In this document: positions 2,689 through 63,908 of the stretch, piece after piece
Layout of the letters: each line of letters starts with the position of its first letter
Numbering within the stretch: the first letter of the stretch is position 1
DNA from: Candidatus Zambryskiibacteriota bacterium
GTDB taxonomy: Bacteria; Patescibacteriota; Minisyncoccia; Phycocordibacterales; WO2-35-19
Reading direction: 5' to 3'
Assembly (NCBI GenBank): GCA_048499675.1
Contig: JASNZL010000007.1
Location: 2,401-66,400, forward strand
Length of the DNA: 64,000 nucleotides
The notes under the pieces: generated by a model
Database searches by the model: none
Told to the model about the DNA's origin: nothing
What the model saw: only the letters and a program-made list of their open reading frames with translations
Translations under genes and position numbers: made by a program

Positions 2689-3912
2689 TTAAAAATTAAT
2701 AAAGACTTCTTTCATTTGTTCAGCTATCAAATCCCAATTGTATTTTTGTTTTACCATATTAAAAGCATTTTCTACAACTTGGTTTCTGTTTGAATCATTC
2801 AAAACTCTATTGACAGTTTTCGCAATACTCTCTGGATTTTCTGGTTCACAAAAGTATCCAGTTTGCACTTCTATACCACTTTGCAGTGGCTTCGCGAGAT
2901 CTACGAGAAAATCTGGTATACCACCAACTGGTGTTGCAATCACAGGAATTTTACAAGCCATCGCTTCAACAAACGAAATGCCGAAACCTTCAGAAAGTGA
3001 TGGTCTTATAAAGATATCACAAGATTTCAAATATTTTGGAAGTTCATTGTGAGAAACAAATCCCAAAAAACAGATTCGAGCTTGGAGATTGGAGCTTAGA
3101 ACTTTTTGTTTTAATGCCTCCTCTAGAGACCCAGATCCCAAAATCACAAATTTAACATTGTCCGGTAAAAATTTTAAAGCATCTATCACATCTCCCACCC
3201 CATTTTTCTTCACCAACCTCGACGATGTCACAAGCGCAACATCATTTTCTTCCATTCCCATTTCCTTTCTGATTTTTTCTCGTTCTTCGTAACTCGTATT
3301 TCGTACCTCAAATTTATCCACATCTACTCCATTCGGAATTATGCTCACTTTCCCCTCATACCCAAACCTTTCCGCCCTATCTTTTAGAAACTGGCTAAGC
3401 ACTGTAAGATGATAAGTTCTTTTGAGAGCCATCTTCCAAGAAAAATTGATGAGACCAAACCAACGTTTGGCAAAATGTTCTTCTGAATCACCTTCTTGGA
3501 GGTTTAAAATTATTGGTACTTTATGTTTAGAAAAAATATTTGCAATATAAGCCCCCCCAGAAGCAAAGGTCGCCATAATGCACCAATAAAAATCATAATG
3601 ATTTATATTATTTAATTTTAGTGTTTTTAATGCGCCCCAAAAAGGGAGCAATATTTTATCCAAAGTTTTGAAACCAGATCCAACTCTATAAACAGAAACA
3701 TTCCCTATTTTTTCAAATTTTGGGAGTTTCCTATCAAATCGCGCTGTAATCATATCAAACTGTAGATCTGAAATCCTGTCTGTTATTTCTTTGACCGCCA
3801 CCTCTGCCCCACCCACAAATGGGTAATATGCCGTTGAAAATATGAGTATTTTTTTTGATTGTTCCACAGCATTAAGCATATCAAAAACACTCCCCCTTAT
3901 CCAATTATCCAA
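2689..3912 (-). CDS. Glycosyltransferase family 4 (GT1 superfamily)
   Basis: C-terminal EGFGISFVEAMACKIPVIATPVGGIPD motif, which is the EX7E/GT4 signature. Confidence 0.8.
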   Translation of the reverse strand: MDNWIRGSVFDMLNAVEQSKKILIFSTAYYPFVGGAEVAVKEITDRISDLQFDMITARFDRKLPKFEKIGNVSVYRVGSGFKTLDKILLPFWGALKTLKLNNINHYDFYWCIMATFASGGAYIANIFSKHKVPIILNLQEGDSEEHFAKRWFGLINFSWKMALKRTYHLTVLSQFLKDRAERFGYEGKVSIIPNGVDVDKFEVRNTSYEEREKIRKEMGMEENDVALVTSSRLVKKNGVGDVIDALKFLPDNVKFVILGSGSLEEALKQKVLSSNLQARICFLGFVSHNELPKYLKSCDIFIRPSLSEGFGISFVEAMACKIPVIATPVGGIPDFLVDLAKPLQSGIEVQTGYFCEPENPESIAKTVNRVLNDSNRNQVVENAFNMVKQKYNWDLIAEQMKEVFINF

Positions 3913-4240: not shown

Positions 4241-4450
4241 CTATCTACTATAACTTGATTTTTCTAAACCTTTTTGCAGATCTATAATAAATTCTTTGGA
4301 ATAAAGACCTGTTTTTTTAAAATCAGCAACAACGTCTTCAGTAGAGCTTTTGACAACAGCAGAAAAAAGTTTAGTTGCTATTTTCTTGTAAGCTTTTGAT
4401 TGCTCTTTTAGTTCTTTGTATTCTTTTTTGGATATAGTCACATTACTCAT
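4241..4450 (-). CDS. Putative antitoxin partner of the YoeB-like toxin
   Basis: 69-aa ORF ending 2 nt before the toxin start, the classic antitoxin-toxin arrangement. No recognisable family. Confidence 0.4.
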   Translation of the reverse strand: MSNVTISKKEYKELKEQSKAYKKIATKLFSAVVKSSTEDVVADFKKTGLYSKEFIIDLQKGLEKSSYSR

Positions 4451-8591: not shown

Positions 8592-8907
8592 TTTTTGAAG
8601 TATCTTCTGCTATTTTGGTAAATTTCAAATCATCTTTTTTGATAGATGGAATAGCAGATTCTTCTGGCACAGTCTCTATGCTAGACGAACTAGTTGATAC
8701 TTCTTTTGGTGTAACTATTTTTGCTCGAGGCTTTCTTGTTGGTGGTTTTACACTAACTTTTTTTAGAATTATGGGATAGATATAAATACAAAATAATATA
8801 AAACCAGACAAAGAAATAATGTAATTTCTCCAAACGTTTGGAATACCAAAGAAAGGTACGAGTATTATCCAAATTGAAAAATAAATTATAAAGTTATTCA
8901 TAAACAA
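8575..8907 (-). CDS. Hypothetical small membrane protein
   Basis: Two N-terminal TM helices; overlaps the downstream gene by 17 nt, suggesting an operon. Confidence 0.3.
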   Translation of the reverse strand: MFMNNFIIYFSIWIILVPFFGIPNVWRNYIISLSGFILFCIYIYPIILKKVSVKPPTRKPRAKIVTPKEVSTSSSSIETVPEESAIPSIKKDDLKFTKIAEDTSKNDNQQ

Positions 8908-19868: not shown

Positions 19869-19896
19869 AATAAAACTTTAGATTAAAAACTTAGTT

Positions 19897-20002
19897 CTGG
19901 CGGCTACCTACTTTCCCCTTTACGAGTATCATCGGCACTATAGAGCTTAACTTCCGTGTTCGGAATGAGAACGGGTGTGGCCTCTATGTTAAACCACCAA
20001 AA
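19897..20002 (-). rRNA. rrf: 5S ribosomal RNA
   Basis: Minus-strand read …CCACACCCGTTCTCATTCCGAACACGGAAGTTAAGC…GTAGGTAGCCGCCAG. Confidence 0.8.
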
Positions 20003-20081: not shown

Positions 20082-20155
20082 TGGTAGGGCGTGTGGGATA
20101 TGAACCCACATCCTCTCCCTTATAGGGAGATGTCTTGCTCTTAGACCACCGCCCC
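20082..20155 (-). tRNA. tRNA-like element in the 23S-5S spacer with an encoded CCA and a non-canonical anticodon loop (CUAUAAG)
   Basis: The minus strand folds as GGGGCGG-TG-GTCT-AAGAGCA-AGAC-A-TCTCC-CTATAAG-GGAGA-GGAT-GTGGG-TTCATAT-CCCAC-ACGCCCT-A-CCA. All four arms form, but the implied anticodon AUA is not a known species. Confidence 0.4.
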
Positions 20156-21638: not shown

Positions 21639-22467
21639 CTGTCGTATTGCCCCAATTACTTGAGGGGTCGGACTATATCTTCACCCTTATTTTATATAAA
21701 ATAAGGGGTTCGGCGTATTAGCATGAAGTCTAGCTTCACACTCCAACCACTTAAGGTTAAGTCTCTACGGGGTCATAACCCAATTTATATTTCATGGACG
21801 GAATAATATTATTTTCTATAATTCCAAATAATTTCGAAATACTAGATGTCTTAAATCTAATTCTGTAATACTCTTTATCTTTATTTAGAGTCCCCTCTAA
21901 ACCAAATTCTTTTAGAGACCGCAATAATTTCTCTTGGTCACTTTTTGAAAATTGTTGAGTATTCAGATACACATTATTTTTTCCACATCTACTTCCGTCA
22001 TCCATAAACCATACTGCCAATATTATTGGATCTAATTTTAGATCAGGAATACATTTTTTCTTATTCCTATAAAACAAATCCATCATTTTGGTAAATTCAG
22101 GATGTTGTTTGGTAAAGAATCTATATGCAATCCGCGCACCATTTCCTTTTCGAGATTTTGGTCCACTTCTTGATAAATTTTTTAAGATTGAGAATTTCCA
22201 TTCAACATACTCTTTTTGAGTTATTGAATGATTAACTTCCAAAAATGCATTTTTTCTTCCTTTTACTCGACGAATATATCCGTCTCCTAAAAGAGTTCCG
22301 ATAATAAATGACTTCTGTAATTGAGTTAGACTTCCCTCGGTATTGTCCATATTACTAATTATATCATTTGATATAACGCCTGTTTATGGAGTCCACCGAT
22401 ATAAGCCAAATTTTTTTATATGAGATTACTCTCATAGGCACCCCGATGTGTTGTAACAACAAGTTAA
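21639..22467 (-). mobile_element. Group I-like intron in 23S domain V (after …GGCACC; E. coli ~2449 site) encoding a LAGLIDADG homing endonuclease
   Basis: The exon resumes at CGATGTCGGCTCATC. The insert contains a 594-nt ORF. Confidence 0.65.
21757..22350 (-). CDS. LAGLIDADG homing endonuclease (two-motif type)
   Basis: LLGDGYI and WFMDDGS motifs; located inside the 23S intron. Confidence 0.8.
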   Translation of the reverse strand: MDNTEGSLTQLQKSFIIGTLLGDGYIRRVKGRKNAFLEVNHSITQKEYVEWKFSILKNLSRSGPKSRKGNGARIAYRFFTKQHPEFTKMMDLFYRNKKKCIPDLKLDPIILAVWFMDDGSRCGKNNVYLNTQQFSKSDQEKLLRSLKEFGLEGTLNKDKEYYRIRFKTSSISKLFGIIENNIIPSMKYKLGYDPVET

Positions 22468-23017
22468 GGTGCCGAACTCCGCCGTCGCTCTGGACGCTTA
22501 GGCGGAACCAGCCTGTTATCCCCGGAGTAGCTTTTGTCCGATAATCTTTTGCCGCGTCTAACGCGAACAATCGGTTCACTTAGCTCTGCTTTCGCATCTG
22601 CTCCTCATGTACGAGTTGCAGTTAAGCCAGCTTGTGCCTATACACTATCGCCATGGTTTCCATTCACGGCTAGCTGACCTTAATAGGCTCCTCCGTTACT
22701 CTTTGGGAGGATAGCGCCCCACTAAAACTGCCCACCAGACACTGTTTCTTTACGTTTTTGCCGTAGAGATTAGAAAATATATCAATACAGAGTGGTATTT
22801 CACTGACGACTCCATGCTCCCCAAAAGGAACACTTCAAAGTCTCCCACCTATGCTACGCAGTAAAAACATATCCTCAATGCCAAGTTGCAGTAAAGCTTC
22901 CGGGGTCTTTTCGTCTAACTGCAGGTAACCGGCATCTTCACCGGTATTGTATTTTCACCGAGCGAGTCCCCGAGACAGTTCCCCAGTCGTTACACCATTC
23001 GTGCGCGTCTGAACTTC

Positions 23018-23373
23018 ATGTCTCGTTTTTTGTTTGCGTTATCAATCGCAAACTTACGATTTCTCTTATTTCTAAGAGCATAGACTATATCTTCATCTTA
23101 AGAGAACCTATAAATTTTATCTTAAGAGTCGGCGTGTTATAACAATGTTTTCTCAAATTTAATTGAGGCATTTGCTATCCGTTCATTTCTGAACAAGTCG
23201 TTACGGGTTCACGATTTGTCCAAATTAATATTTGGTCACAAATCGCAATTCCCACGGTATTATCTTTCCTTCAACATTCTTATCCTTGAATAAGAACTCC
23301 AGTTAAGACTTCACCGTTATTAGCCGAATTTTTTCATCGAGATTACTCTCGAAGCTGGCAATTCAATTACCAG
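23018..23373 (-). mobile_element. ORF-less intron-like insertion in 23S domain IV (after GGTAGCGAAATTCCTTGTC; E. coli ~1931 site)
   Basis: The exon resumes at AAGTTCAGACGCGCACGAATGG. The insert is ~356 nt. Confidence 0.5.
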
Positions 23374-23399
23374 ACAAGGAATTTCGCTACCTTAGGACG

Positions 23400-24148
23400 A
23401 TTCATTTCTTTTTATTACTCAGTTAGTAGCTACTGAGAGCCTCATTGTCGCCAATGAGATCGGACTATATCTTCCCAAAATGATTTCTCGCTTTAGGTCT
23501 AGCGTATAGTCTCTGAGGATTTTCTGATAAGGAATTTTTATAATCTTTTAAATTATACTTCCTTGTTCTTCCTTTTCCTTCGTTCAATTTCTCTCGAAGT
23601 TCTACAACCTTTAACATTCCGTCATTACTTAAATGTTCTTTTTTGAAAACCATTTTTGCAATTTGGGAGAAGATTGAGAAATTTTTCTTCTTATTTGAAG
23701 AAAGAAAAGAATATTTTTCAAAGAAAGGTATTATCCTTTCTTCAATAGCGACAGGATTCTCTACTACGTAGTAGCAAACCCCGTCTTTTCGTTCTTGCAA
23801 TCTTCCACATCCTAAATGATGTTTCATTAACGCAAGAACAGTTTTGTCGCGTTGAGCAACATTTAAAGTCAGTACCACTTGCCATCCAAGAGAATGATCT
23901 TCTCTTTTTCTTAGTGAGACATTGAAGCTTCCTTCTCCGTCCACAAAGCCAGCAATATAGTTTCCTATATTTTGAGGAATTGACTTAAGCCACGAAATAT
24001 CTTTCATTTTTAATTCGTTGCTTATCAGAATCTTTCCTGCGGATTGTCTGCACCGCTACATTTTTACTGCCATTTCGATTTATGACGAGTAGTAGACGGA
24101 TACTCAGAGTTTCCCGCATTTAGCTAGATTTTATAACTACAATTATCC
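23400..24148 (-). mobile_element. Intron-like insertion in the 23S (after GGCGATAACTATAA; E. coli ~1917 region) encoding a LAGLIDADG endonuclease
   Basis: The exon resumes at CGTCCTAAGGTAGCG. The insert contains a 543-nt ORF. Confidence 0.55.
23465..24007 (-). CDS. LAGLIDADG homing endonuclease (single-motif type)
   Basis: YIAGFVDGEGSF motif; located inside the 23S insertion. Confidence 0.75.
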   Translation of the reverse strand: MKDISWLKSIPQNIGNYIAGFVDGEGSFNVSLRKREDHSLGWQVVLTLNVAQRDKTVLALMKHHLGCGRLQERKDGVCYYVVENPVAIEERIIPFFEKYSFLSSNKKKNFSIFSQIAKMVFKKEHLSNDGMLKVVELREKLNEGKGRTRKYNLKDYKNSLSENPQRLYARPKARNHFGKI

Positions 24149-24389
24149 TTATAGTTATCGCCGACATTCACCAGGGCTTACAACAGTCAGCATACATCAT
24201 GCTGAGTACGAGAATTTTCAATTTGAAAATTCATACGCAGTATGATGTACACCGCCATTGTTTAACCTTCTGGCATTGGTCAGGTGTCACCCCCTATACA
24301 TCCTCTTACGAGTTCGCAGGGAGCTGTGTTTTTGATAAACAGTCGCCAGGGATTCTTTAGCTGCGGCCCAACCGCACCTCGCTACGCTC

Positions 24390-24520
24390 GGGCGGAATTC
24401 TCAATTTTTAATTTTTAATTTTCATTCAATTTTCAATGTATTAATTTCAAGTTTTTAACATTGTAAATTAGAAATTATTTGAAAATTTTAAATTGTAAAT
24501 TTTAAATTCCGTGCCGAATG
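24390..24520 (-). repeat. AT-rich intervening sequence (IVS) in the 23S, family member with similar termini
   Basis: Flanked by CCTCGCTACGCTCGGGCGG and CCGTGCCGAATGCAATGAGGCACGG, with an interior of AATTTTCAATTTT-type repeats. Confidence 0.6.
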
Positions 24521-25089
24521 CAATGAGGCACGGTCGGGCAGGCCTTATACCGAAGGTACGGCCGCTTTTTTGCCGAGTTCCTTGGGGACCTCTCACTCGT
24601 TCGCCTTGGTCTTCTCGACCTGACTACCTGTGTCGGTTTACGGTACGGTCTATTTATGCTTAACCTTAGAAGATTTTCTTGGAAGCGTGCTTTACAAACT
24701 CTTATCTGCCGAGGCTTCAAATTGTCATACTGCTTGAGGTGCAATTAAATGCAGTCTTGCGGATTTACCTACAAGACACCCTTACAGCACAAACGCAAAT
24801 CCAATAATGCGCTTTGTATACTACACTCCGTCTCTCCATCGAACATAAACAGGTGCAGGAATATTAACCTGCTGTCCATCGGGTCCGACTTTCGTCATAC
24901 CCTTAGGCCCGACTAACCCTTCCCTGATTGTCATCGGAAAGGAAACCTTAGTCTTTCGGCGCGCGCAGTTTTCATGCGCGTTGTGGTTACTTGTGCCAAC
25001 ATTCTTACTTCGTAACGCTCCAGCATGGGTCACCCCTTTGCCTTCACAGCGGATACGAATACTCTCCTACCGCGCCAGCCACACTACGC

Positions 25090-25250
25090 TACGCTCCGTG
25101 CGCTGGAATTTTCAATTTAAAATTTTCAATTTTCAATCAATTTTCAATGTCTTAATTTTGAAATTTAGAAATTAAGAATTTAATCATTGTTTAGAAATTA
25201 GAAATTAAAAATTAGAAATTCCGCACGAAATGCAATGTAGTGCGGCCGAC
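25090..25250 (-). repeat. AT-rich IVS in the 23S, family member
   Basis: Flanked by CACTACGCTACGCTCCGTGCGCTGG and CCGCACGAAATGCAATGTAGTGCGG. Confidence 0.6.
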
Positions 25251-25318
25251 ACCCTCAGTTTCGGTACATAGCTTAGCCCCGATTATCTTCGGCGCAGAAT
25301 CTCTGAATGAGTGAGCTG

Positions 25319-25361
<43 letters not shown>

Positions 25362-25940
25362 CATTGTCGGAGAAATTTCACCACCTTAAGTGCACTTAGC
25401 TATGATTTAGGGACCTTAAATTGAGATCATGGGCTGTTTCCCTTTTGACGAACGGAGCTTAGCCCCCGCCGTCTAACTGCCACGCTTTCACCCACACACT
25501 AAGTTTTCGATAGTTTTCAACGCGCTTTGCGCAATCAAAAACTTAGTGTGCGGGTTAACTATTGGTATTCGGAGTTTGATAGGTCTAGCGAGATTTCTCC
25601 CTGTCCAGACCTTCCAGTGCTCTACCCCCAATAGGAACGCGTGACGCGAACCCAAAAGCTCTTTCGGAGAGAACCAGCTATTACCAGGTTCGATTAGCTT
25701 TTCACTCCTTACCACAGGTCATCCGAAGGAATCGCACGACCAACCGGTTCGGGCCTCCATCTCGCTTTCGCGAGACTTCACCCTGCCCATGGCAAGCTCA
25801 CCTGGCTTCGGGTCTAATGTATACGACATAAAATTTCGCGCTATTCACGCTCGCTTTCACTATGCCTAACGCGGGTCGACCGCTTCGGCTGCCACATACA
25901 TTAACTCGTTGGCTCATTCTTCAATAGGCACGCCATGACC

Positions 25941-26111
25941 GTCACACCTCGCTACACTCGGTGACGGAATTTTCAATTTAAAATTTAAAATTTAAAAATA
26001 ATTTTCAATATCCCAATTCTCAATTAAGAAAATGGAAATTTAATCATTATTTAGAAATTAGAAATTAAAAATTAGAAATTCCGTTGCAACGAATGCACTG
26101 AGGTGCAACGG
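25941..26111 (-). repeat. AT-rich IVS in the 23S, family member
   Basis: Flanked by GTCACACCTCGCTACACTCGGTGAC and CCGTTGCAACGAATGCACTGAGGTGCAACGG. Confidence 0.6.
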
Positions 26112-26166
26112 CTCTGACTCCTTGTAAGCATATGGTTTCAGGTCTATTTCACCGCCCTCACCGGGC

Positions 26167-26208
<42 letters not shown>

Positions 26209-26646
26209 TAGAAATATATTTAGCCTTACCGGTTAGTTCCGGCAGATTCCCCCGAGCTATTCGTGTCTCGAGGTACTCAAGAACAACAGCAAAAAAGATT
26301 ATTTGTTTTCGACTACGGGGCTATTACCCTCTGGGGCGCTTCTTTCCAGAAGCTTCTTCTAACAAATAATTTTGTAACTTTTCTCGTATAAATACGACGC
26401 TATCGTCTTACAACCCCCGCACACTCACTTTGTCATCGTTGCATTGTGTTTTTATAAAATTTCATTGCACATCCGATTAGCTACCGAATCTTAAATTTCG
26501 TTTACTATCAAAGATGCAACAAAACACAATGACAAAGTGAGTGTGCGGGTTTGGGCTTCTCCGCTTTCGCTCGCCGCTACTCACGGAATACTTTTTAGTT
26601 TCTTTTCCTCCTGGTACTGAAATGTTTTACTTCCCAGGGTAAGCTC

Positions 26647-26805
26647 CGTGCCTCACTACCGCTCGTCACAAAATTTTCAATTTTTAATTTTGTAATTTTC
26701 ATTGAATGTTCCAATTTTAGAATTTTCAAATTGAGACATTGAAAATTTATTGGAAACTGAAAATTGATACTTGAAAATTAGTGCTGAACGAAAGTGAAGC
26801 ACGGT
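26647..26805 (-). repeat. AT-rich IVS in the 23S 5' domain, family member
   Basis: Flanked by CCGTGCCTCACTACCGCTCGTCAC and GTGCTGAACGAAAGTGAAGCACGG. Confidence 0.55.
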
Positions 26806-27523
26806 CCTCGCAAAGCGAGGGGGTTTCCCCATTCGGAAATTTCCGGATCAAAGGTTGCTAGGCACCTCCCCGAAACTTATCGCAGCCACGCCACGTCCTT
26901 CATCGCTATTTCTAGCCAAGGCATCCACCATATGCTCTTAAATTTCCTATTAGGAAATTCAAAAACCACTTGTCCGATCATTTTAATTTAAAATGATTTA
27001 GGACTTAATTATCCTGTCTTACAAGACTACAATCATCCTGCAAGACCTTTGTCTCCATATGCCGAGCTTTTTTCTCCAGCATACAGAAACTACAATATCC
27101 TGATACAAAAAATATATCAGGAAGTCCACTTCCAACAAACAAAGACCCCTTCGACTCGCTACGCTCGCTCAGGGTAAACCCTCAGCAAAAAGAAGCTCAT
27201 CAAAAAGCGATGTTGTAGTGGAATGTACCCAGTAGTAGATTTTGGCATTGAGCAAGCTCACACATACGCAAGCGTATGTTATGCCAAAATTCACTACTGG
27301 GTTTATTTGTCAAAATACAATCGTTCCGAATTTTGTCTTCTCTACCCTGTTCTTAATTTTAGCAAGCTAAAATTAAGAACAGGATTTTGAATCATTATCT
27401 TACTCAAAAAAGAACAAAAAAATCCACTTCTCTCGAAGCGGGCTCAAACCAAGCCAAAGGGTTTTTTCTACCCTCTTTTTCGCTTCGTAGTTAAAAATCT
27501 CAATAACATAATTTGTGCTATCT

Positions 27524-48076: not shown

Positions 48077-48389
48077 ACGGCTCTAATGGTTAATTAGACA
48101 GAGGCGTTATATTAAAAGTGCCTCGGGCTTGGTTTAAAGGATAATAACATAAAAAAAGACCTTGTACAATACAGCACACAGACCCATGACTCCCCTTAGC
48201 GAACAAACGACAGAATTGTAAATAATAGATTGAAAGCCGAAATACGAGTTACGAGTTACGATAAAATTTTAAATTGAAAATTCAAAATTAATACATTTAT
48301 TAAAAATTTAATGGGTAAGATTAGTAGGTATTAGTAATTAGTGGACTACTTTTAAACATGCGCCTTTATGAACTTTCTAACTAACTCTA

Positions 48390-49267: not shown

Positions 49268-49639
49268 CTAAATATCCAGAACCTGCTTCAATTCGCTCGG
49301 AAAGATGCCGTACATTTCTTCTGGGCACCTTTCAATTACTGCTGTTGCCCCGCCACGTCTTGCTTTTGACAATTCTTCCTTGTTGGTAGAGAGAGCAAGG
49401 ACCGGCAATTTACCGTATTTCTTTCTGATATTTAAAGTGAGTGATACACCATCCATTGATGGCATATTTATTTCCGTGATGACTATTGAAACATTTTGGG
49501 TCTCAATAATATCGAGAGCTTGTAAGCCATTATTTGCCTCAAAGAATTCAAATTGGATTCCTTCAAATTTTTTGACTATAAAAGACATGAGTAGTCTTCT
49601 GGCTTGCTCATTGTCACCAACAATCAATATCCTTTTCAT
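49268..49639 (-). CDS. Stand-alone CheY-like receiver domain with an atypical phospho-acceptor site (Glu in place of Asp)
   Basis: Receiver fold (ILIVGDNE…VITEINMPSMDG…LALST…). The usual DxNMPxMDG aspartate is E in ITEINMP, and the first acidic pair is reduced to G-D. Confidence 0.65.
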   Translation of the reverse strand: MKRILIVGDNEQARRLLMSFIVKKFEGIQFEFFEANNGLQALDIIETQNVSIVITEINMPSMDGVSLTLNIRKKYGKLPVLALSTNKEELSKARRGGATAVIERCPEEMYGIFPSELKQVLDI

Positions 49640-49750
49640 CTTTCAAAACCTCCAACTAGAGAATAGCAAGAAGCAAATTGAATTTCAAATTTTAATCTTT
49701 TCTAGCAAATAGGGGTTTTTCAGGAGTTTTGTTTGCTTTTATTAATTCTT

Positions 49751-51142
49751 TTATTTTTGAAGAAGTTTCAGGAAGAAAAGGAGAAAGATTTTGGCAACTT
49801 CATAGAGCTCATTTACCAATTCTTCAATGACTTTTACTCCCTTGATTTTTTCCTCTGGAGTCCCCTTTACTAAAGAGAAAGGTTTTGTATCTTGGATTTT
49901 TTTATCCATCTCCCCTATTTTTTGCCAAATTACATCCATAGCTTTCTGCAAATCAAAATTTAGAATTGCTTCAGTATATTCTTTTGAAGTTTGTTCGTAA
50001 TTCGTATCTCGTACTTCGTATTTCTTATCTTCAGCCATCTTCATCACTCTTGAAACCAAATTACCCAGACCATTAGCAAGACCGGAATTATAAGAATCTT
50101 TGAACCTCTCCATCGTAAAAGGACTGTCTTCAAAACTTGAGATTTCTTTTAGGAGAAAATATCTCAAAGCATCTACTCCATATTCTTCTGATACTTTTTT
50201 TGGATCAACTACATTTCCTAGTGATTTTGACATCTTTACACCACCCTCCGCAGTAATATGTCCGTTTACTACAATTTTATCTGTATTTGAAATACCGCAA
50301 GCCATAAGCATTGCTTGCCACATCACCGCTTGGAATCGAGTATTGTCCTTACCACAGTATTGAAGTGGTGTACCACTTATCCAATACTTTTCAAAATTTG
50401 AATCGTCGCCACTTCCCCAACCCAAAGCGGTTATATAATTTGTAAGCGCATCAAACCAAACGTACATCACATGATCTTTGTCGTCAGGAACCTCTATACC
50501 CCAAGGCATTTTTGATTTTAATCTTGAAATACTGAAGTCTTGTAATCCTCTTTTTACAAAAGAGATTATTTCATTGTATCTAAATTGAGGTACAACAAAT
50601 TTAGGATTTTTATCATAAAAATCTAGGAGCTTGTCTTGAAATTTTGAGAAAGCAAAAAAATAATTCTCTTCTTCTATTATTTCCAAATCTCTGTTTGGAT
50701 GAACTCTACATCTACCATTTTCTAAATCTGAATCAGTCTTTTCTTCTTCACATCCTACGCAATACTTTGTTTTATAATTTTTTTTGTAGATGTATCCATT
50801 TGCTTTTACTTTTTTCCAGAATTCTTGAGCTCCTACTATGTGATTTTTATCTGTAGTCCTTATGTAATTAATATCTCTAGATACTCCAAAAGATTTTAGT
50901 TGTTCTTTAAAGTTTATAAAGGCTTCGTTTACAAATTTTTGAGGGTCTTTATTGTTTAGAATCGCTTTTTCGTATATTTTCATACCATGCTCATCTGTAC
51001 CGGTATTAAAAAAAACATCAAAACCATTTATTTTTTTATACCTATACAAAGCATCCGCCCTAATTATCTCAAGAGCGTGCCCCATATGGAGGTTTGCATT
51101 TACATAAGGAAGAGTTGTTGTTATATAGAATGTTTTAGACAT
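49751..51142 (-). CDS. metG: Methionyl-tRNA synthetase (short form without the C-terminal tRNA-binding domain)
   Basis: PYVNANLHMGHA and KMSKSLGN class I motifs. Confidence 0.9.
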   Translation of the reverse strand: MSKTFYITTTLPYVNANLHMGHALEIIRADALYRYKKINGFDVFFNTGTDEHGMKIYEKAILNNKDPQKFVNEAFINFKEQLKSFGVSRDINYIRTTDKNHIVGAQEFWKKVKANGYIYKKNYKTKYCVGCEEEKTDSDLENGRCRVHPNRDLEIIEEENYFFAFSKFQDKLLDFYDKNPKFVVPQFRYNEIISFVKRGLQDFSISRLKSKMPWGIEVPDDKDHVMYVWFDALTNYITALGWGSGDDSNFEKYWISGTPLQYCGKDNTRFQAVMWQAMLMACGISNTDKIVVNGHITAEGGVKMSKSLGNVVDPKKVSEEYGVDALRYFLLKEISSFEDSPFTMERFKDSYNSGLANGLGNLVSRVMKMAEDKKYEVRDTNYEQTSKEYTEAILNFDLQKAMDVIWQKIGEMDKKIQDTKPFSLVKGTPEEKIKGVKVIEELVNELYEVAKIFLLFFLKLLQK

Positions 51143-56416: not shown

Positions 56417-59400
56417 TTATTTTATTTTAATTTTGAATTTATAATTTCCAATTTTTATTTCTTCTCCATCCACGGCACCCAAACTAAATTCGATAATATT
56501 TGTGGGTTTTGAAATAGTAGAAAAATTTGATTCAAAAAACTTTTTTCCTTCTTCACTTGTTTCAATAATAAGTTCTATTTTGTCATTTGGTACTAAACCT
56601 TTTTCTTTTCTTAATTCCTGAATACTTCTTATAAACTCTCTCGCATTCCCCTCTTCTTCCAATTCCTTTGTTATTTCCGTATCCAACCAAACTTCTTCCT
56701 CCATGTTTCCATCAAAAGCCACTTCCTTAACATTTACCTCCTCTTTAATTAGGTTTGTGTGTTCTTCCTTATTTTTTAATTTTGAATTTTTAATTTTTAA
56801 TTTATTTAACGGTTGTCTCACTTTTATTCCTGCGCTATTTCTTTTTTCCATCGCTAGCGAGACTATTTTTCTCACTTCTTCCATTTTTTGATTTAATTCT
56901 TCATCCGCTACAACATTCTCAAGCGTAGACCACTCTTCCAAATGAACACTTTCTTTTTTGTCTCCAAAATTCAAATCTTTATAAATTGTTTCTGCAAGAA
57001 AAGGCATAAACGGCGCAAGAATTTTTGAAAGTTCTATCAAAACAAAAAGTGTGGTTTCTCTTGCTTTCTTTTGATCTTCAAAATCTTCTGATTTAAACCT
57101 ATCTCTTGATCTTCTCAAATACCAAGTTGAAAGGTCTTCCACAAACCCTCTTATTGGCCGACCCGCTTTGACGGTATCGTATTTTTCTAAATTGAGAGTC
57201 ACTTCAGTGTGCAATTCTTTTAGTCTTGAAAGGATCCATCTGTCCAAAACATTATCCGAGTTTGTATTTGGTTTTATGTTGCTCTCGTATGTTTTATAAA
57301 AAGCTACAACGTTTAGTAAAATATTTATAAGTCTTTGGTAGACTTCCTTTACATCGTCATCCCTAAAATTTAAATCTTCTGCCTGCATAACAACGGATGT
57401 CATAAGGTAGTATCGCAAGGCGTCAGCTCCATATCTATCAATTATCACAAGAGGGTCTGTATAATTGCCTTTGGACTTGCTCATTTTCTCACCATCGCTT
57501 GCAAGAATTGTTCCTGTCGTCACGACATTTTTGAATGGTTCATGGCCAAAAATTCCAACCGCAAGCGCATGCATATAATAAAACCACGTCCTTGTCTGGG
57601 CAATATACTCAGCAACAAAATCTCCGGGGCTTCTTTTTTCAAACTCCTCTTTATTTTGAAATGGATAATTGTATTCAGCAAAAGGCATTGAGCCAGACTC
57701 TACCCAACAGTCAATAACTTCGGGAATTCTTGTGAGTTTGCTTCCATCCTCATCTACAAGCTCTATTTCATCAATGTACGGTCTATGTAAATCAATCTCG
57801 TAGTTTTTGTTATGTGGAAGCGGGACAAAGTTTAGTTCTCCAAATTCTGCTGTTTTAAATCTGTATTGTTTTTTTTCTTTTATTTCTTTTCTTTGTTCTT
57901 TGTCTAAAACGTAAGCAGAACCAAAGAGAGCATTTATTGTGCCCTGATGACTAACTATTAAAATATTTTTACCTTTATATTTATTCTCTAAATCGTATAT
58001 AAAATCTCCGACTCGTATATGGAGACTATCGAGAGACTCTACACCTTCTATATTTTTTTCATACTTTTCTCTTTCTGTTTTGAAGTTGCTATCAAACTCT
58101 TTCCAAGTTTTGCCTTCATAATTTTTACCAATTTGGTATTCAGTTATTCTCTCATCTACCAAAATATTTTCTTGATTCAGACCAAAATGCTTAGCTATAA
58201 TTTCTCCAGTTTCTACACATCTTGTTAAAGGCGAAGTAATGATTAAATCTATTTTTTTGTTTTTTATATCAGATGCAACTACCGAAACTTCTCTTTGGCC
58301 CTCCTCCGTTAAATGAAAAACATTATTGGGATCTGCGTTTACGAAGTCTTTTAGATTAGCTTCTGACTCTCCATGTCGCATTACAAAATATTTGTTTCCA
58401 GATTTCTTGACATATTTTTTTAATTCTTCTACTCCGCTTATAACTTTTACTTCTCCTTTATCATTCTTCCATATAGGTAAAGGTGAGGCCCAAAATCTAT
58501 TTCGGCTAATTGTCCAATCTGGCGCTTTTTCTACTATATCTCTAAATCTTCCATTTTTTAAGTGAGCCGGAACCCAGTTTATATTTTCGTTTTTGGAAAG
58601 CATTTCGCTTTTTATTTTTTGAATATCTATAAACCAACTCGAGAGCGCGTTGTAAATAAGTGGAGTGGAACATCTGTAACAATGTGGGTAAGAGTGAGTG
58701 TTTGGTTTTTTATCAAACAAAAGACTTCTTTTCTCCAAATCTTCTATGACCATTTTTTCTGCTTTTTTGATGTAGACACCTTTTACGAATTCCGGAGCAT
58801 TGTCGTTGTAGTGACCATTTGAAAGAAGGAGCGGGACCATTGGCAAATCTGCTTTGAGACCTAACTGGTAGTCGTCTTCTCCATAAATTACAGCGGTGTG
58901 CACAATGCCTGTCCCCTCTTCCGTATTTACAAAATCAGCTGACAAAACATACCACGCTTTTTTGCCTGTATTTTTTACTGCATCCAAATGATAAAGTGGC
59001 TCGTATTCTAAACCAGCCAAATCTTTGCCTTTTATTTCTTTTTTTATTTCATATTCTTGCCCACCGAAAATACTTTCTACTCTATCTTTTGCCAATATGT
59101 AATTTTCTTTAGTGCTTAGTGCTTCGCTTTTTTTAACTTCGACTATTACATAATCAATATCGTCCCCCACCGCCAAAGCAACATTCGCTGGAAGTGTCCA
59201 TGGGGTTGTCGTCCAAGCCAACAGATAGCTATTTTTAAATTTTTCATTTTTAATTTTAAATTTTATAGTGACCGCTTCTTCTGTGACATCCTTGTATGAA
59301 TTATCCATAGCAATCTCTGCTTTTGAGAGAGGAGTCTCACATCTTGGACAATAGAGCAAAACTTTCCTGCCCTCGTAGAGCATTCCTTTTTTTTGGATAT

Positions 59401-60060: not shown

Positions 60061-60453
60061 CTATCTGATAAAATTTCTCAATTTTTCTCTCATTTTTACA
60101 AAAATATCTGGAGCGATTTCATATAATTTTCTTTTCAATCTTTTTACACTCACAAGCTTCATTTGAGCCAAAATAACAGAAACTTTTTGATTATTTGGGT
60201 CTGTAAAATTGAAGTAAAAATCAAATTTCTTTTGTTTAGTAGAAAGTGGAACACACCAAAACATATGATTGTTAAATTTCTTAATAACAAGGACTGGTCT
60301 TGAAAAATTATCACCGCTTCCATTTTGCTCATACCCAATATTTTTACCAATTGAAGACATCCAAACTTCCGCTTCTTTCGGAAAATAATTAGGAGAACCA
60401 TTTTCAAACTGTATTTTCTTTTTAAGTTCGTTCCATGAGTCGTATTCGTTCAT
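60061..60453 (-). CDS. PemK/MazF-family toxin (mRNA interferase-like); no adjacent antitoxin
   Basis: …EAEVWMSSIGKNIGYEQNGSGDNFSRPVLVIKKF…CVPLSTKQ… matches the PemK/Kid pattern GEIW…G.EQ.G.RPVLIV…VPVTS. Bracketed by the ~75-bp direct repeats. Confidence 0.6.
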   Translation of the reverse strand: MNEYDSWNELKKKIQFENGSPNYFPKEAEVWMSSIGKNIGYEQNGSGDNFSRPVLVIKKFNNHMFWCVPLSTKQKKFDFYFNFTDPNNQKVSVILAQMKLVSVKRLKRKLYEIAPDIFVKMREKLRNFIR

Positions 60454-60527
60454 TCCTCAATATTAGCCGATTTCTCTCACTTTTTCAAAAGATTTTGTAT
60501 TTTGTTTTCTATCTCTTGTTTAATCGC
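60451..60527. repeat. Direct repeat copy 2 (overlaps the last 17 codons of the RT gene and supplies GAGGAA-ATG of the MazF-like gene)
   Basis: See copy 1. Confidence 0.85.
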
Positions 60528-61484
60528 AAACTGATTTCCATGTTTCAATAATCCACAATATGAAGTGAGCACATTTACATTTTCACTCTCTTTTAATGCC
60601 TTAGTTACTCTTCTTTTAGTACTTGTCCTTAAAACTCTATGATTAGGAAAATGAACCCAACCCAAAAAATCAAGTCCAGAATAAATTGTCTTTATAAACA
60701 CTTTATCCGGATGAAATTCTAGCTTTAATTTTTTTTGAAGAAAATTGGAAATTTTTGGCATAAGGTTTAACAGAATATTTTTATCACTATCAAAAATAAC
60801 AAAATCATCAGCGTATCTAATATAATATTTAATTTTTAGTTTATGTTTTACAAACTGATCAAATTTATTCATATAAACATTGACCAAAAGTTGGGAAGTT
60901 AGATTACCCAAAGGGAGACCTGTATTTGGTTTACCAATTGTATTAAAACTTTCAATTACTCTCTCCAATAACCAAACTATGTCTTTGTCTTGTATATATT
61001 CATTTAAAATATTAATCAAAATCTCGTGATTTATTGAAGCAAAAAACTTTTTTATATCGCACTTCAATATATAACATTGTTTTGTATTATTTTTTGATAC
61101 TTTTGTACCAAAAAATCTAAATCTATTTATAGCCCTATGTGTTCCTTTGTTTAATCTGCACGAATAAGAATCATATATAAAAAGTTGGTCAAAATATGGG
61201 TATAAAACTCTATGTATGGCGTGGTGCAAAAGACGATCCCTTACACTTGCCTTGTGTATGTTTCTTGGTTTTGGGTCACTTATATTAAACGCTTTGTATC
61301 CATCATGTTTGTATGTTTTGTTTTTGAGAGCATGGTGTAAATCAATAATGTTTCCTGATAAATTTAGAGCAAACTCCGCGACATCTTTTTTATCTTTTTT
61401 ACCTTTTATGAATTCCTGCCATGATTCAAAAAGATTTTTAATTGATATAATATTTTCATAATCAATTTTAATTAAATTTTTCAT
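60477..61484 (-). CDS. Diversity-generating retroelement (DGR) reverse transcriptase
   Basis: Start MKNLIKIDYENIISIKNLFESWQEFIKGKKDKKDVAEF (DGR-RT N-terminus). Motifs SVRDRLLHHA, CDIKKFFASINHEIL, the DGR hallmark GLPLGNLTSQ (SQ in place of the SP of group II RTs), and YIRYADDFVIF. No maturase or endonuclease domain. The track ORF is extended artefactually to 61535 through the 5'-UTR hairpin and G11. Confidence 0.85.
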   Translation of the reverse strand: MKNLIKIDYENIISIKNLFESWQEFIKGKKDKKDVAEFALNLSGNIIDLHHALKNKTYKHDGYKAFNISDPKPRNIHKASVRDRLLHHAIHRVLYPYFDQLFIYDSYSCRLNKGTHRAINRFRFFGTKVSKNNTKQCYILKCDIKKFFASINHEILINILNEYIQDKDIVWLLERVIESFNTIGKPNTGLPLGNLTSQLLVNVYMNKFDQFVKHKLKIKYYIRYADDFVIFDSDKNILLNLMPKISNFLQKKLKLEFHPDKVFIKTIYSGLDFLGWVHFPNHRVLRTSTKRRVTKALKESENVNVLTSYCGLLKHGNQFAIKQEIENKIQNLLKK

Positions 61485-61869
61485 ATGAATACCAATTCTA
61501 CCCCCCCCCCGAGGATTACCACAAGTAATCCTCAAAGAAAAAGAAACGTATATTCTTTGGCAAAGATTACATAAAAATTTTCCAAAAGTTGAACGATTTG
61601 GTTTAGGACAAAAGATCGAAAATTTGTTTCTTTCTATTTTGGAATTAACTTTTTCTTCCGCCTATTTATCCCTCGAACCTAAAATATTGATGCTTGGCAA
61701 GACTATATCTCGACTTGATGTCCTTAAATTTTTTATTCAGATTGCTTGGGAGAATAAACTAATTTCAACAGAACAACACATTGCACTTTCAAACAACTTA
61801 GAGGAAATTGGCCGACAACTCGGTGGTTGGAAAAAAGGTTTAAAAACAAAACTCCCACCTAAAAAATGA
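61485..61869 (+). CDS. avd: DGR accessory variability determinant (Avd-like four-helix-bundle protein); N-terminus disrupted or phase-shifted by a C11 homopolymer
   Basis: The frame beginning at TTG 61558 gives …VYSLQRLHKNFPKVERFGLGQKIENL…LISTEQHIALSNNLEEIGRQLGGWKK, matching the Avd/TIGR02436 pattern. An ATG at 61485, head-to-head with the RT start codon (CATATG), would join this frame if the C-tract were 10 or 13 nt long. Confidence 0.55.
61501..61534. promoter_or_regulatory. C11/G11 homopolymer plus a 9-bp-stem hairpin (GAGGATTAC-CACAA-GTAATCCTC) in the 5' region shared by divergent avd and RT
   Basis: Direct sequence observation. This is the only long homopolymer in the window. Confidence 0.7.
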
Positions 61870-63032: not shown

Positions 63033-63908
63033 TTAGAGCGTATTTAGAAATTTTTTTATCTCCTCAAACTCCTCTGGCAAAGCCGATTCTACTTTTATAT
63101 GAGTTCCGCTTGGTAATTCCAATTTTATAGAAACGGCATGAAGCATTAATCTTTGCTTTTTCTTATCGTAACTCGTATCTCGTAACTCGTGCTTCATGCC
63201 CCCATATACTTTATCTCCTACGACAGGGTGCCCTATTGATTTCAAATGGACTCTAATCTGATGAGTTCTGCCAGTTTTTGGTTTTACTTCTACATAAGCC
63301 CCCACTTCGCCAAGGCTACGCGGGGTAAATAACCCTTGAGCTAAAACCTTGTATCCTGTGACCGCTTCCCTCAACTCCCCTTTTGCTCCATACTCTGCTG
63401 ACCACTTTCTAAAATCAGAAGCGCTCCGCCCAATTGGTTTGTCTATCACCCCTTCCAATTTATCTTCATTAAATTTACCCCAAACTACAGCGTGATAAAT
63501 TTTCTCTACTTTTCTAGCTTGGAATTGCTCTTTGAGATATTGATGAGCTTCTTTGGTTTTTGCAACCAAAATAACTCCACTTGTATCTTTGTCCAGTCGG
63601 TGCACTATCCCCGGTCTTTTTATGACTTCACCATTTTGTAAAATTTGTTCTTCCCCAACATCCTTAAGTTCTGGGTAATTTTGAAGAATCCAATCAGTCA
63701 AAGTTTTTTCTTTGCTCCTACTATCGGAACCTGCCCCGCGATCTGCGTCAGCTGATTTTGCGGAACCTGCCCCGCGATCTGCGTCAGCTGATTTTGCGGG
63801 GCTTGCCCCGCGATCTGCGTTAGTAGATTTTGCGGGGTGAACCAAAAGCCCACAAGGTTTATCAAGAGCCAATATATATTCGTCTTCATACAATATTTTT
63901 ATTTCCAT
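63033..63908 (-). CDS. RluA-family pseudouridine synthase with an in-frame 3 x 36-bp GC-rich tandem repeat insertion
   Basis: VHRLDKDTSG catalytic motif and RTHQIRVH motif. The repeat at 63727-63834 encodes (AKSADADRGAGS)x3. Confidence 0.8.
   Translation of the reverse strand: MEIKILYEDEYILALDKPCGLLVHPAKSTNADRGASPAKSADADRGAGSAKSADADRGAGSDSRSKEKTLTDWILQNYPELKDVGEEQILQNGEVIKRPGIVHRLDKDTSGVILVAKTKEAHQYLKEQFQARKVEKIYHAVVWGKFNEDKLEGVIDKPIGRSASDFRKWSAEYGAKGELREAVTGYKVLAQGLFTPRSLGEVGAYVEVKPKTGRTHQIRVHLKSIGHPVVGDKVYGGMKHELRDTSYDKKKQRLMLHAVSIKLELPSGTHIKVESALPEEFEEIKKFLNTL

Follow-up and report, generated by a model that had tools for sequence, protein, structure and literature searches.

Short heptanucleotide arrays that replace loop sequence without lengthening it in essential and other genes of a Candidatus Zambryskiibacteriota bacterium and its relatives

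A 64,000-nucleotide (nt) stretch of the genome of a Candidatus Zambryskiibacteriota bacterium (assembly GCA_048499675.1, contig JASNZL010000007.1, positions 2401–66 400; hereafter the window) contains four tandem arrays of a heptanucleotide of the form TACGARN, three of them inside genes that encode unrelated proteins. These host genes are a GT4-family glycosyltransferase gene (2689–3912, minus strand; Pfam Glycos_transf_1 and Glyco_transf_4), the methionyl-tRNA synthetase gene metG (49751–51142, minus strand) and a gene for an RluA/RluD-type pseudouridine synthase (63033–63908, minus strand; RluA in the following). Written 5′ to 3′ along the TACGA-bearing strand, the GT4 array (3278–3305, minus strand) reads TACGAAA TACGAGT TACGAAG AACGAGA and encodes VRNTSYEE in the loop joining two Rossmann-like domains. 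The metG array (49993–50027, minus strand) reads TAAGAAA TACGAAG TACGAGA TACGAAT TACGAAC and encodes DKKYEVRDTNYE in a 16-residue loop between the catalytic and anticodon-binding parts of the enzyme, and the RluA array (63164–63191, minus strand), CACGAGT TACGAGA TACGAGT TACGATA, encodes HELRDTSYDK. The fourth array (48236–48263, plus strand), GCCGAAA TACGAGT TACGAGT TACGATA, is intergenic, with the tatD stop codon on one side and the promoter region of rpsF on the other. All four had been pointed out in a preliminary description made from the sequence alone, and both their positions and the encoded peptides were found as given there; that the GT4 gene is essential, as the same description had it, is an assumption.

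TACGANN occurs in three to five tandem units at exactly these four places in the window. Its frequency, a check proposed in the preliminary description, lies far above expectation: the pattern TACGANNTACGANNTACGA (three TACGANN units with at most one mismatch) has eight overlapping matches, all inside the four sites, and none in 100 dinucleotide-preserving shuffles, while the two-unit pattern TACGANNTACGA has nine matches where 0.04 are expected. Nine of the ten same-strand adjacent TACGA pairs no more than 30 nt apart are spaced by exactly 7 nt, and TACGA pentamers number 75 in the window versus 126 expected from composition. Chance is excluded as an origin of the four sites. Their unit is non-palindromic and consists of a conserved 5-nt core and a variable 2-nt spacer, and their density is four per 64 kb, or about one per 16 kb. 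When the flanks of the four copies were aligned, nothing but a purine-rich context was common to them, and neither terminal inverted repeats nor a hairpin nor a target duplication was found. No open reading frame (ORF) of at least 20 amino acids (aa) crosses the intergenic copy, whose distance to a promoter-like site on the opposite strand is about 75 nt, the copy being upstream. The copy is abutted, in the same 7-nt register, by an array of AAATTnn units (48264–48291, plus strand; AAATTTT AAATTGA AAATTCA AAATTAA), a continuation that had been overlooked. An Rfam scan of the window at gathering thresholds returned rRNA and tRNA only, and no family at the arrays.

The encoded peptide, (L/I/V)-R-x-T-x-Y-(D/E), is TACGARN read through three phases. 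Since a tandem heptamer passes through all three phases in every 21 nt, any reading frame yields one cyclic 7-aa peptide, and the preserved frame and similar peptides that had been offered as evidence are uninformative. Antisense reading of T-ending units meets TAA in two of three frames (a hand check on the RluA array). The sense orientation is thereby favoured, and it is the orientation of each of the 12 TACGA-type coding arrays found in Paceibacteria. The view that the element acts at the nucleotide level rather than as a protein motif has held up: an intergenic copy exists, the arrays keep rare codons (CGA, 8% of Arg codons; ACG, 9% of Thr codons), and they are 92–100% identical between genomes whose flanks and genes are 59–84% identical. 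Keeping six specific codons by amino-acid selection alone would have a probability of about 2e-4, a codon-frequency product that assumes saturated synonymous sites.

Judged by the names of its homologue matches, the tiny-genome host is a Paceibacteria/Zambryskibacteria-like bacterium of the candidate phyla radiation (CPR). No exact match to the metG product of the window turned up, and relatives were gathered by homologue searches. The material for comparison comprised these 64 kb of the host genome and partial contigs of its relatives, the latter grouped into an ‘L001 genome’ (L128, L001, L211) and an ‘L002 genome’ (L129, L002, L213) by shared sample and coverage. Nucleotide identity to the window was determined separately for each array and for its 60-nt flanks and the rest of the gene. 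In the L001 genome, the arrays are identical at 27/27 positions in GT4, 33/36 in metG and 26/26 in RluA, with flanks and rest of gene at 69–84%; even in the distant L212, where only RluA is available, the array matches at 24/26 positions in a gene that is, like the flanks, 59% identical. In the L002 genome, array identity is 48% in GT4, 50% in metG and 44% in RluA, with flanks and rest of gene at 71–86%. The arrays are thus either better conserved than the genes that carry them or completely replaced. TACGARN occupies four loci in the window and three in the L001 genome. In the L002 genome, GAATCYA takes the place of TACGARN in metG and RluA, and AGCT-type units do so in GT4; about 47 kb of that genome yielded no TACGA array, just as the window yielded no GAATC array. 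As a pattern, a unit family spreads to several permissive sites of one genome and is then held at the nucleotide level, and it can be replaced as a set, as GAATCYA at both metG and RluA illustrates.

How widely the individual copies are shared differs from gene to gene. TACGA arrays stand at the same GT4 codons in L126 and L127 (TACGAGA TACGAGT TACGAAA; 65–66% aa identity to the window), at the same GT4 site in L128 and at the same RluA codons in L212. For GT4 and RluA, the claim that the motif is unlikely to be ancestral has thus fallen to the very observation that its author had named as a refutation, the same residues in distant orthologues. In metG, the TACGA copy was found, among the loci fetched and besides the window, only in L001. 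The intergenic copy, moreover, has no counterpart in L001, L002 or L005 within the compared extent of their orthologous spacers, so that, taken with the metG copy, the family also appears to gain sites. A 19-mer, TACGAGATACGAGTTACGA, is common to the GT4 genes of L126 and L127 and the RluA genes of the window, L211 and L212.

The preliminary description had asked whether the 7-aa stretch is an insertion relative to orthologues and whether it lies in loops. The second point was borne out. In the AlphaFold model of GT4, residues 203–207 form a coil between the two domains, and the block 201–210 has a predicted local distance difference test score (pLDDT) of 74 versus about 91 on either side; in that of metG, residues 371–386 are a 16-residue coil loop, with pLDDT below 50 at 380–384. 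Extra residues, however, are present in none of the three proteins. In an alignment of 30 metG sequences, the segment from MAE to EY is exactly as long in the window as in orthologues that have no such motif, and HMMER alignments to solved MetRS, RluD and GT4 structures contain no additional residues. The distance from PNGV to SRLxxKNG in GT4 is 38 aa in the window, compared with a mode of 37 aa in array-less orthologues and 27–43 aa, the same range, in array-bearing ones, and the RluA loop, whose length varies among orthologues, has one of its shorter forms in the window. The arrays replace loop sequence without lengthening it.

The same loops bear arrays of quite different units in different lineages. 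This is best documented for GT4, where we surveyed 80 orthologue loci from metagenomes together with the window and L126–L130, in 47 of which the sites could be located. Within 75 nt after PNGV (site 1), 15 of the 47 orthologues carry a strict heptamer array, whereas arrays of period 5, 6, 8, 9 or 10 occur there in none of the 47 and the 450 nt upstream of the site contain no array of any period in any of them. Depending on the lineage, the unit at site 1 is TACGARN, AAATTCG, AAATCCG, AAATCCA/GAATCCT, GAATCAR, AAGTTSA, TTTTCAA or ATTTCAG. In the TACGAAA register, the unit is TACGAAA in the window and TTCGAAA in L188, where it is the AAATTCG array just listed, and in L138 TTCGAAA and TCCGAAA alternate; these units differ by one substitution that has been applied in every unit of an array, a concerted change. 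Many arrays are perfect repeats of four to five units, which makes them either young or homogenised. A second site about 65 aa downstream has a heptamer array in 12 of the 47 orthologues, with the AAGCTnn family in many lineages. The window retains a decayed array there (3073–3105, minus strand; AAGTTCT AAGCTCC AATCTCC AAGCTCG AATC, encoding KVLSSNLQARI; Tandem Repeats Finder call at 3072–3094, period 7) that is homologous to the AAGCTnn arrays of its relatives. The RluA loop likewise bears TACGA-, GAATC- and GAATTA-type peptides across orthologues, and metG of L002 has GAATCCA GAATCCA GAATCTA GAATCTA at the exact position of TACGARN in the window; metG of L005 has a weak AAATnnn periodicity. 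Inside genes, the arrays are thus concentrated in a few disordered loops between domains, and the best reading of these loops is that they accept almost any hydrophilic sequence.

TACGA is not a special element but one family among many heptamer arrays of the clade, and the abundance of other period-7 arrays across the window had also escaped notice. A scan for threefold repetition of any 5-mer with a constant period found 62 positions at period 7 in the window, versus 0–6 at periods 5, 6 and 8–12, and an unbiased lag-match detector, blind as to which positions vary, called 19 period-7 arrays versus at most eight at any other period. In 1.05 Mb of collected Paceibacteria loci, 155 period-7 arrays compare with 2–31 for other periods. 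Their location is not predominantly intergenic: 110 of the 155 (71%) lie within ORFs of at least 150 aa, and three of the four TACGA copies are coding. Density is uneven, with 15 of 46 loci of at least 10 kb free of arrays and 15 carrying three or more (dispersion test, p = 5.5e-7); L005 had no period-7 array in this count. Several families can coexist, as in L171, L180 and L188, which have four to six different units each, side by side in single genomes, and one family can recur, as in L138, a 15-kb metagenomic contig, where AAATCCG is found at 1764–1787, 4406–4432 and 8761–8792, once outside long ORFs and once in each of two different glycosyltransferase genes. Heptamer arrays are in fact frequent in glycosyltransferase genes of surface-polysaccharide clusters.

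Beyond the clade, TACGANN in at least four units was found in at least 120 stretches of GTDB genomes (L006–L125) from many phyla, in a scan that was conditioned on TACGA and is therefore uninformative as to whether TACGA is special. Among the matches listed, in which Paceibacteria did not appear, the taxa include Nostocales, Bacteroidota, Akkermansia, Acidobacteriota, Chloroflexota, Alcanivorax, Shewanella and others, and the units are mostly TACGAAT, TACGATT, TACGAGC and TACGACT; also among these matches, ORFs of at least 150 aa contain 34 of the 129 arrays, about 74% being outside such ORFs, and the loci are rich in other heptamer arrays (156, versus at most 31 at other periods).

The majority of the units in the window belong to the AAATTnn or nnAATTT type, which occurs between genes, in insertions of the 23S rRNA gene and three times in ileS. 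The ileS arrays, all AT-rich and on the minus strand, encode the C-terminal KFKIKIK (56429–56454, nnAATTT type, at the 3′ end of the gene) and, internally, KLKIKNSKLKN (56778–56803) and KFKIKNEKFKN (59239–59264). In L005, ileS (L005 1295–4855) contains 29 additional aa, inserted at the very position of the KFKIKNEKFKN array in the window, L001 and L002, so that real changes in length also occur in this loop. The 23S rRNA gene itself (22429–26953, minus strand) measures 4.5 kb, compared with a 2.9-kb model, owing to about 1.6 kb of insertions that include an ORF (23465–24007) and four clusters of opposed AATTTnn and AAATTnn arrays (approximately 24385–24520, 25095–25235, 25966–26082 and 26672–26732). 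Two of these were folded, 24385–24520 (minus strand, folding z = -5.5) and 25095–25235 (minus strand, of the same kind, z = -4.6), and in both the 5-nt cores are predicted to pair as 5-bp helices separated by the 2-nt spacers as internal loops, with GC clamps at the base. A structural role of the AT-rich family thus seems visible in the predicted folds of the 23S rRNA insertions. Hairpin pairing was considered as a general cause of the core-and-spacer pattern and rejected, as it fits the AATTT/AAATT arrays of the 23S rRNA gene but not the TACGA arrays, which have no inverted partner.

Several known systems resemble these arrays in part. Uptake signal sequences (USS) and DNA uptake sequences (DUS) are single 9–12-mers that occur about once per kb, often as inverted pairs at terminators. 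Like them, the arrays are short motifs gathered in poorly conserved segments of coding DNA by substitution, without insertions or deletions (indels), and in lineage ‘dialects’; unlike them, they are tandem heptads at a far from high density of about one per 16 kb, with many unit families per genome. Rickettsia palindromic elements (RPEs) are palindromic in-frame insertions of 100–150 bp that add residues to proteins, and share with the arrays the presence of a nucleotide-level repeat at surface-exposed positions of unrelated conserved proteins, whereas the arrays measure 21–35 nt, are non-palindromic and add no residues. The operators of omega, a ribbon-helix-helix (RHH) protein, consist of 7–10 WATCACW heptads, and the RNA sites of HutP of three UAG-N4 units; both lie next to the genes they control and have a known cognate protein. 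Here the likeness lies in the 7-nt register, the conserved core with degenerate edges and the three or more contiguous units, and the difference in location, these sites being found in promoters or leaders whereas three of the four TACGA copies are intragenic.

Closest are the heptamer repeats of other bacteria. Cyanobacterial heptamer families of short tandemly repeated repetitive (STRR) sequences, which are typically longer, near-perfect and intergenic, were reportedly described by Mazel and colleagues in 1990. With these and with the GGGGA(T/C)T / GGGAATC heptamer repeats of Nostoc and Xanthomonas (PMC4692102), the arrays share genome-specific units at many loci and several families per genome; unlike STRRs, the arrays are short, built of core and spacer, and mostly coding. 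Dispersed genome-specific heptamer repeats are known more widely (PMC4679880, PMC4692102), and heptanucleotide repeats are, as far as these two articles relate it, the most over-represented long simple sequence repeats (SSRs) in many bacteria, with a patchy distribution (Mrazek et al. 2007, via PMC4679880, PMC4692102). The arrays agree with long heptanucleotide SSRs as outlined there in their at least three head-to-tail 7-nt units, the excess of period 7, the lineage-specific patchy abundance and the presence of one unit at several unrelated loci. They depart from that outline, in which such SSRs are mainly intergenic and genic repeats are expected in multiples of three, by the 71% found in long ORFs, by their recurrence in loop hot spots and by their limited, length-neutral extent of three to five units. 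The TAACTGA repeats of marine Beggiatoaceae, cyanobacteria and Bacteroidetes (MacGregor 2015, PMC4679880) likewise consist of one heptamer in sets of two to six copies at many loci per genome, and the few TAACTGA copies inside ORFs lie at the protein periphery in a stop-free orientation; yet most TAACTGA sets stand just upstream of start codons, a bias not seen here, and neither conserved hot-spot loops nor family switching between sister genomes is reported for them in that article. Neither of the two properties suggested for TAACTGA, recognition by a binding factor and mobility, has ever been demonstrated (PMC4679880). The TACGARN family is best read as belonging to this bacterial class of long heptamer SSR or STRR-like repeats, as a coding-region variant whose departures from the known members are its mostly coding location, short length, length neutrality, recurrent loop hot spots and core-plus-spacer architecture.

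With a probability of roughly one half, we favour the explanation that the four sites belong to a single STRR-like family of heptanucleotide repeats, TACGARN, specific to this lineage, which in-register copying renews and which only permissive loops tolerate. Arrays would arise and stay homogeneous through out-of-register copying at an offset of 7 nt (or 14 nt), be it by transient strand misalignment, by template switching during replication or repair, or by conversion between units, and such copying would overwrite neighbouring sequence without a net indel. Products that gain or lose 7 nt would be purged as frameshifts, so that arrays would persist only in permissive loops, and families would spread and turn over by copying from one array to another. 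This copying step is what we infer; the perfect arrays of four to five units and the concerted unit changes imply homogenisation, though not indels, and copying or conversion between arrays, as in the concerted evolution of selfish or neutral repeats, is favoured over a dedicated function. Of the mechanisms offered in the preliminary description, recurrent expansion of a preferred heptamer comes closest.

Several observations weigh against this explanation. No slippage, conversion or binding event was directly observed. Arrays are identical in L002, L003 and L004, contigs from different samples with one and the same metG protein, and orthologous arrays of the same family differ by substitutions only, the number of units being unchanged among these three contigs and between the window and L001. 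Local slippage by itself does not account for the recurrence of one unit, and even of the 19-mer, in distant genomes and at unrelated loci, for a conserved 5-nt core next to a variable 2-nt spacer, or for an array that is identical at 24 of 26 positions in a gene that is only 59% identical. The last two of these features are explained at least equally well by purifying selection on a recognised motif.

That is the substance of the most serious alternative, which we regard as possible but would not bet on: the heptads may be cis-acting sites that are read cooperatively by a sequence-specific factor, either on DNA, in the manner of RHH proteins such as omega, or on RNA, in that of HutP, and selected genome-wide, surviving only where the protein tolerates them. 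All sites would follow a shift in the specificity of the factor, with TACGARN as the outcome in one genome and GAATCYA in its sister. Conserved cores with variable spacers, arrays that outlast their flanks and genes while keeping rare codons, the same unit at unrelated loci and at an intergenic site, the joint family switch at metG and RluA, the stability of arrays across contigs with the same metG protein from different samples and the repeat-binding factor proposed for TAACTGA repeats (PMC4679880) all speak for such sites, and they explain core conservation, rare-codon retention and the concerted change of dialect as well as copying does or better. Against them stand the many unrelated unit families per genome, which would demand either many factors or one that reads periodicity alone, the position of three of the four copies deep within genes and away from promoters and start codons, the low density of four per 64 kb, and the hot-spot loops of many lineages, whose perfect and evidently young arrays resemble the product of a mutational process; nor has a candidate binding protein been identified. 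Repeat copying and recognised sites are not mutually exclusive.

Other explanations fare far worse. It is very unlikely that the arrays are contingency loci in which heptamer slippage switches genes, especially the surface glycosyltransferase, by frameshift: a unit length that is not a multiple of three and the frequent arrays in glycosyltransferase genes would suit phase variation, but the arrays have only three to five, mostly imperfect units, occur also in metG, ileS and RluA, genes whose switching off would be lethal or costly, are identical across contigs with the same metG (L002/L003/L004) or the same GT4 protein (L129/L130) and are in frame in all aligned relatives, without a single frameshifted allele. 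Given stable arrays and essential hosts, phase variation was rejected. Even smaller is the chance that a small, frame-preserving mobile element of the RPE type has inserted itself or left footprints, adding some 21–28 nt to each gene. One nucleotide stretch in unrelated genes and an intergenic site would be expected from such an element, and the metG and intergenic copies look recently acquired. An in-frame insertion, however, was rejected, and the mobile-element footprint of the preliminary description contradicted, by loops that are as long as in array-less orthologues in all three genes; the aligned flanks bear no marks of insertion, other heptamer arrays occupy the same loops in other lineages, and the 19-mer has no exact copy in viral contigs. 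It is just as improbable that the cause lies with the protein or its translation, whether as a functional peptide xR(D/N)T(S/N)Y(E/D) or as a pause cassette of rare CGA and ACG codons at domain borders. The arrays do lie at domain boundaries, do consist of rare codons and do encode a peptide that is kept in distant GT4 and RluA orthologues; but one copy is intergenic and without an ORF, exact retention of six codons is improbable from amino-acid selection alone, and neither the strict 7-nt periodicity nor the many other units nor the AT-rich arrays of common codons would be predicted. Convergence at the level of the proteins is excluded by the data.

A more tentative idea, about which we are doubtful, is that a trans-acting system, either a factor that reads heptads or an activity that rewrites sequence from a template, sets the heptamer dialect of a genome and writes or maintains it at permissive sites. 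It would explain why loops in metG, RluA and GT4 have TACGARN in one genome and GAATCYA or AGCT-type units in its sister, and also why arrays outlast genes, why new copies appear without indels and why some relatives are free of arrays. A speculative candidate is the stand-alone, group-II-intron-like reverse transcriptase (RT) of the window, L001 and L002. Its gene (60477–61535, minus strand) lies between RluA and ileS in the window, matches RVT_1 but falls below the cut-off for a group II maturase, and has its best PADLOC matches to generic RT, RT_UG17 and CRISPR-associated RT. The RT gene also adjoins ileS in L001 and L002 and is missing from L005, which is likewise without heptamer arrays. 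Retrohoming of the kind performed by diversity-generating retroelements was dropped, since the RT is group-II-intron-like and the A positions of the core are invariant; the period-7 array list contained no template/variable repeat pair between 59.3 and 63.1 kb. Next to the RT gene, and also between RluA and ileS, lies a gene for a PemK/MazF-like toxin (60061–60453, minus strand), which was considered as a reader of UACGA pentads and dropped, as L001 has TACGA arrays without this gene at that locus.

The bacterial preference for 7-nt tandem repeats, and the role of STRR-type families, have been open questions since 1990. The present clade offers an unusually clean natural experiment, with arrays in alignable, essential genes, so that orthologue alignments show directly which state is ancestral, that indels are absent, how units turn over and how far the nucleotides are constrained. 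If copying is the process at work, repeat dynamics would remodel protein loops while leaving their length unchanged; if the arrays are recognised sites, a genome-wide system of cis-elements would lie hidden in the coding sequence of CPR bacteria. In practical terms, such arrays produce spurious ‘shared motifs’ between unrelated proteins as well as local islands of high identity, which may mislead analyses of homology, recombination and selection.

Some further features of the window were noted. RluA contains, at 63725–63835 (minus strand), a GC-rich 36-nt tandem repeat with 3.1 copies and 92% matches, which encodes PAKSADADRGAGS-type units preceded by LLVH and followed by DGRSKE; relatives have two, one or no copies. 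Unlike the heptamer arrays, this repeat is a genuine in-frame insertion of variable copy number. With 463 aa, the metG protein of the window is shorter than that of relatives (about 480 aa), and its terminal tail, KIFLLFFLKLLQK (region 49268–49800), is unrelated to theirs. Between metG and tatD lies a gene for a response-regulator receiver protein of 123 aa (49268–49639) that is missing in L001, L002 and L005; together with the unrelated tail, its presence suggests that the 3′ end of metG was replaced by an insertion. Directly upstream of rpsF, about 110 nt (48077–48190, minus strand) are near-identical in the window, L001 and L002 and still recognisable in L005, while the rest of the spacer is unrelated among the four; the segment may be a promoter and leader element of the rpsF-ssb-rpsR operon. 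Finally, ARAGORN predicts a tRNA-Tyr at 20082–20155 (minus strand) that adjoins the 5S rRNA gene (19895–20001) and has the anticodon ATA, with an unusual A at the wobble position.

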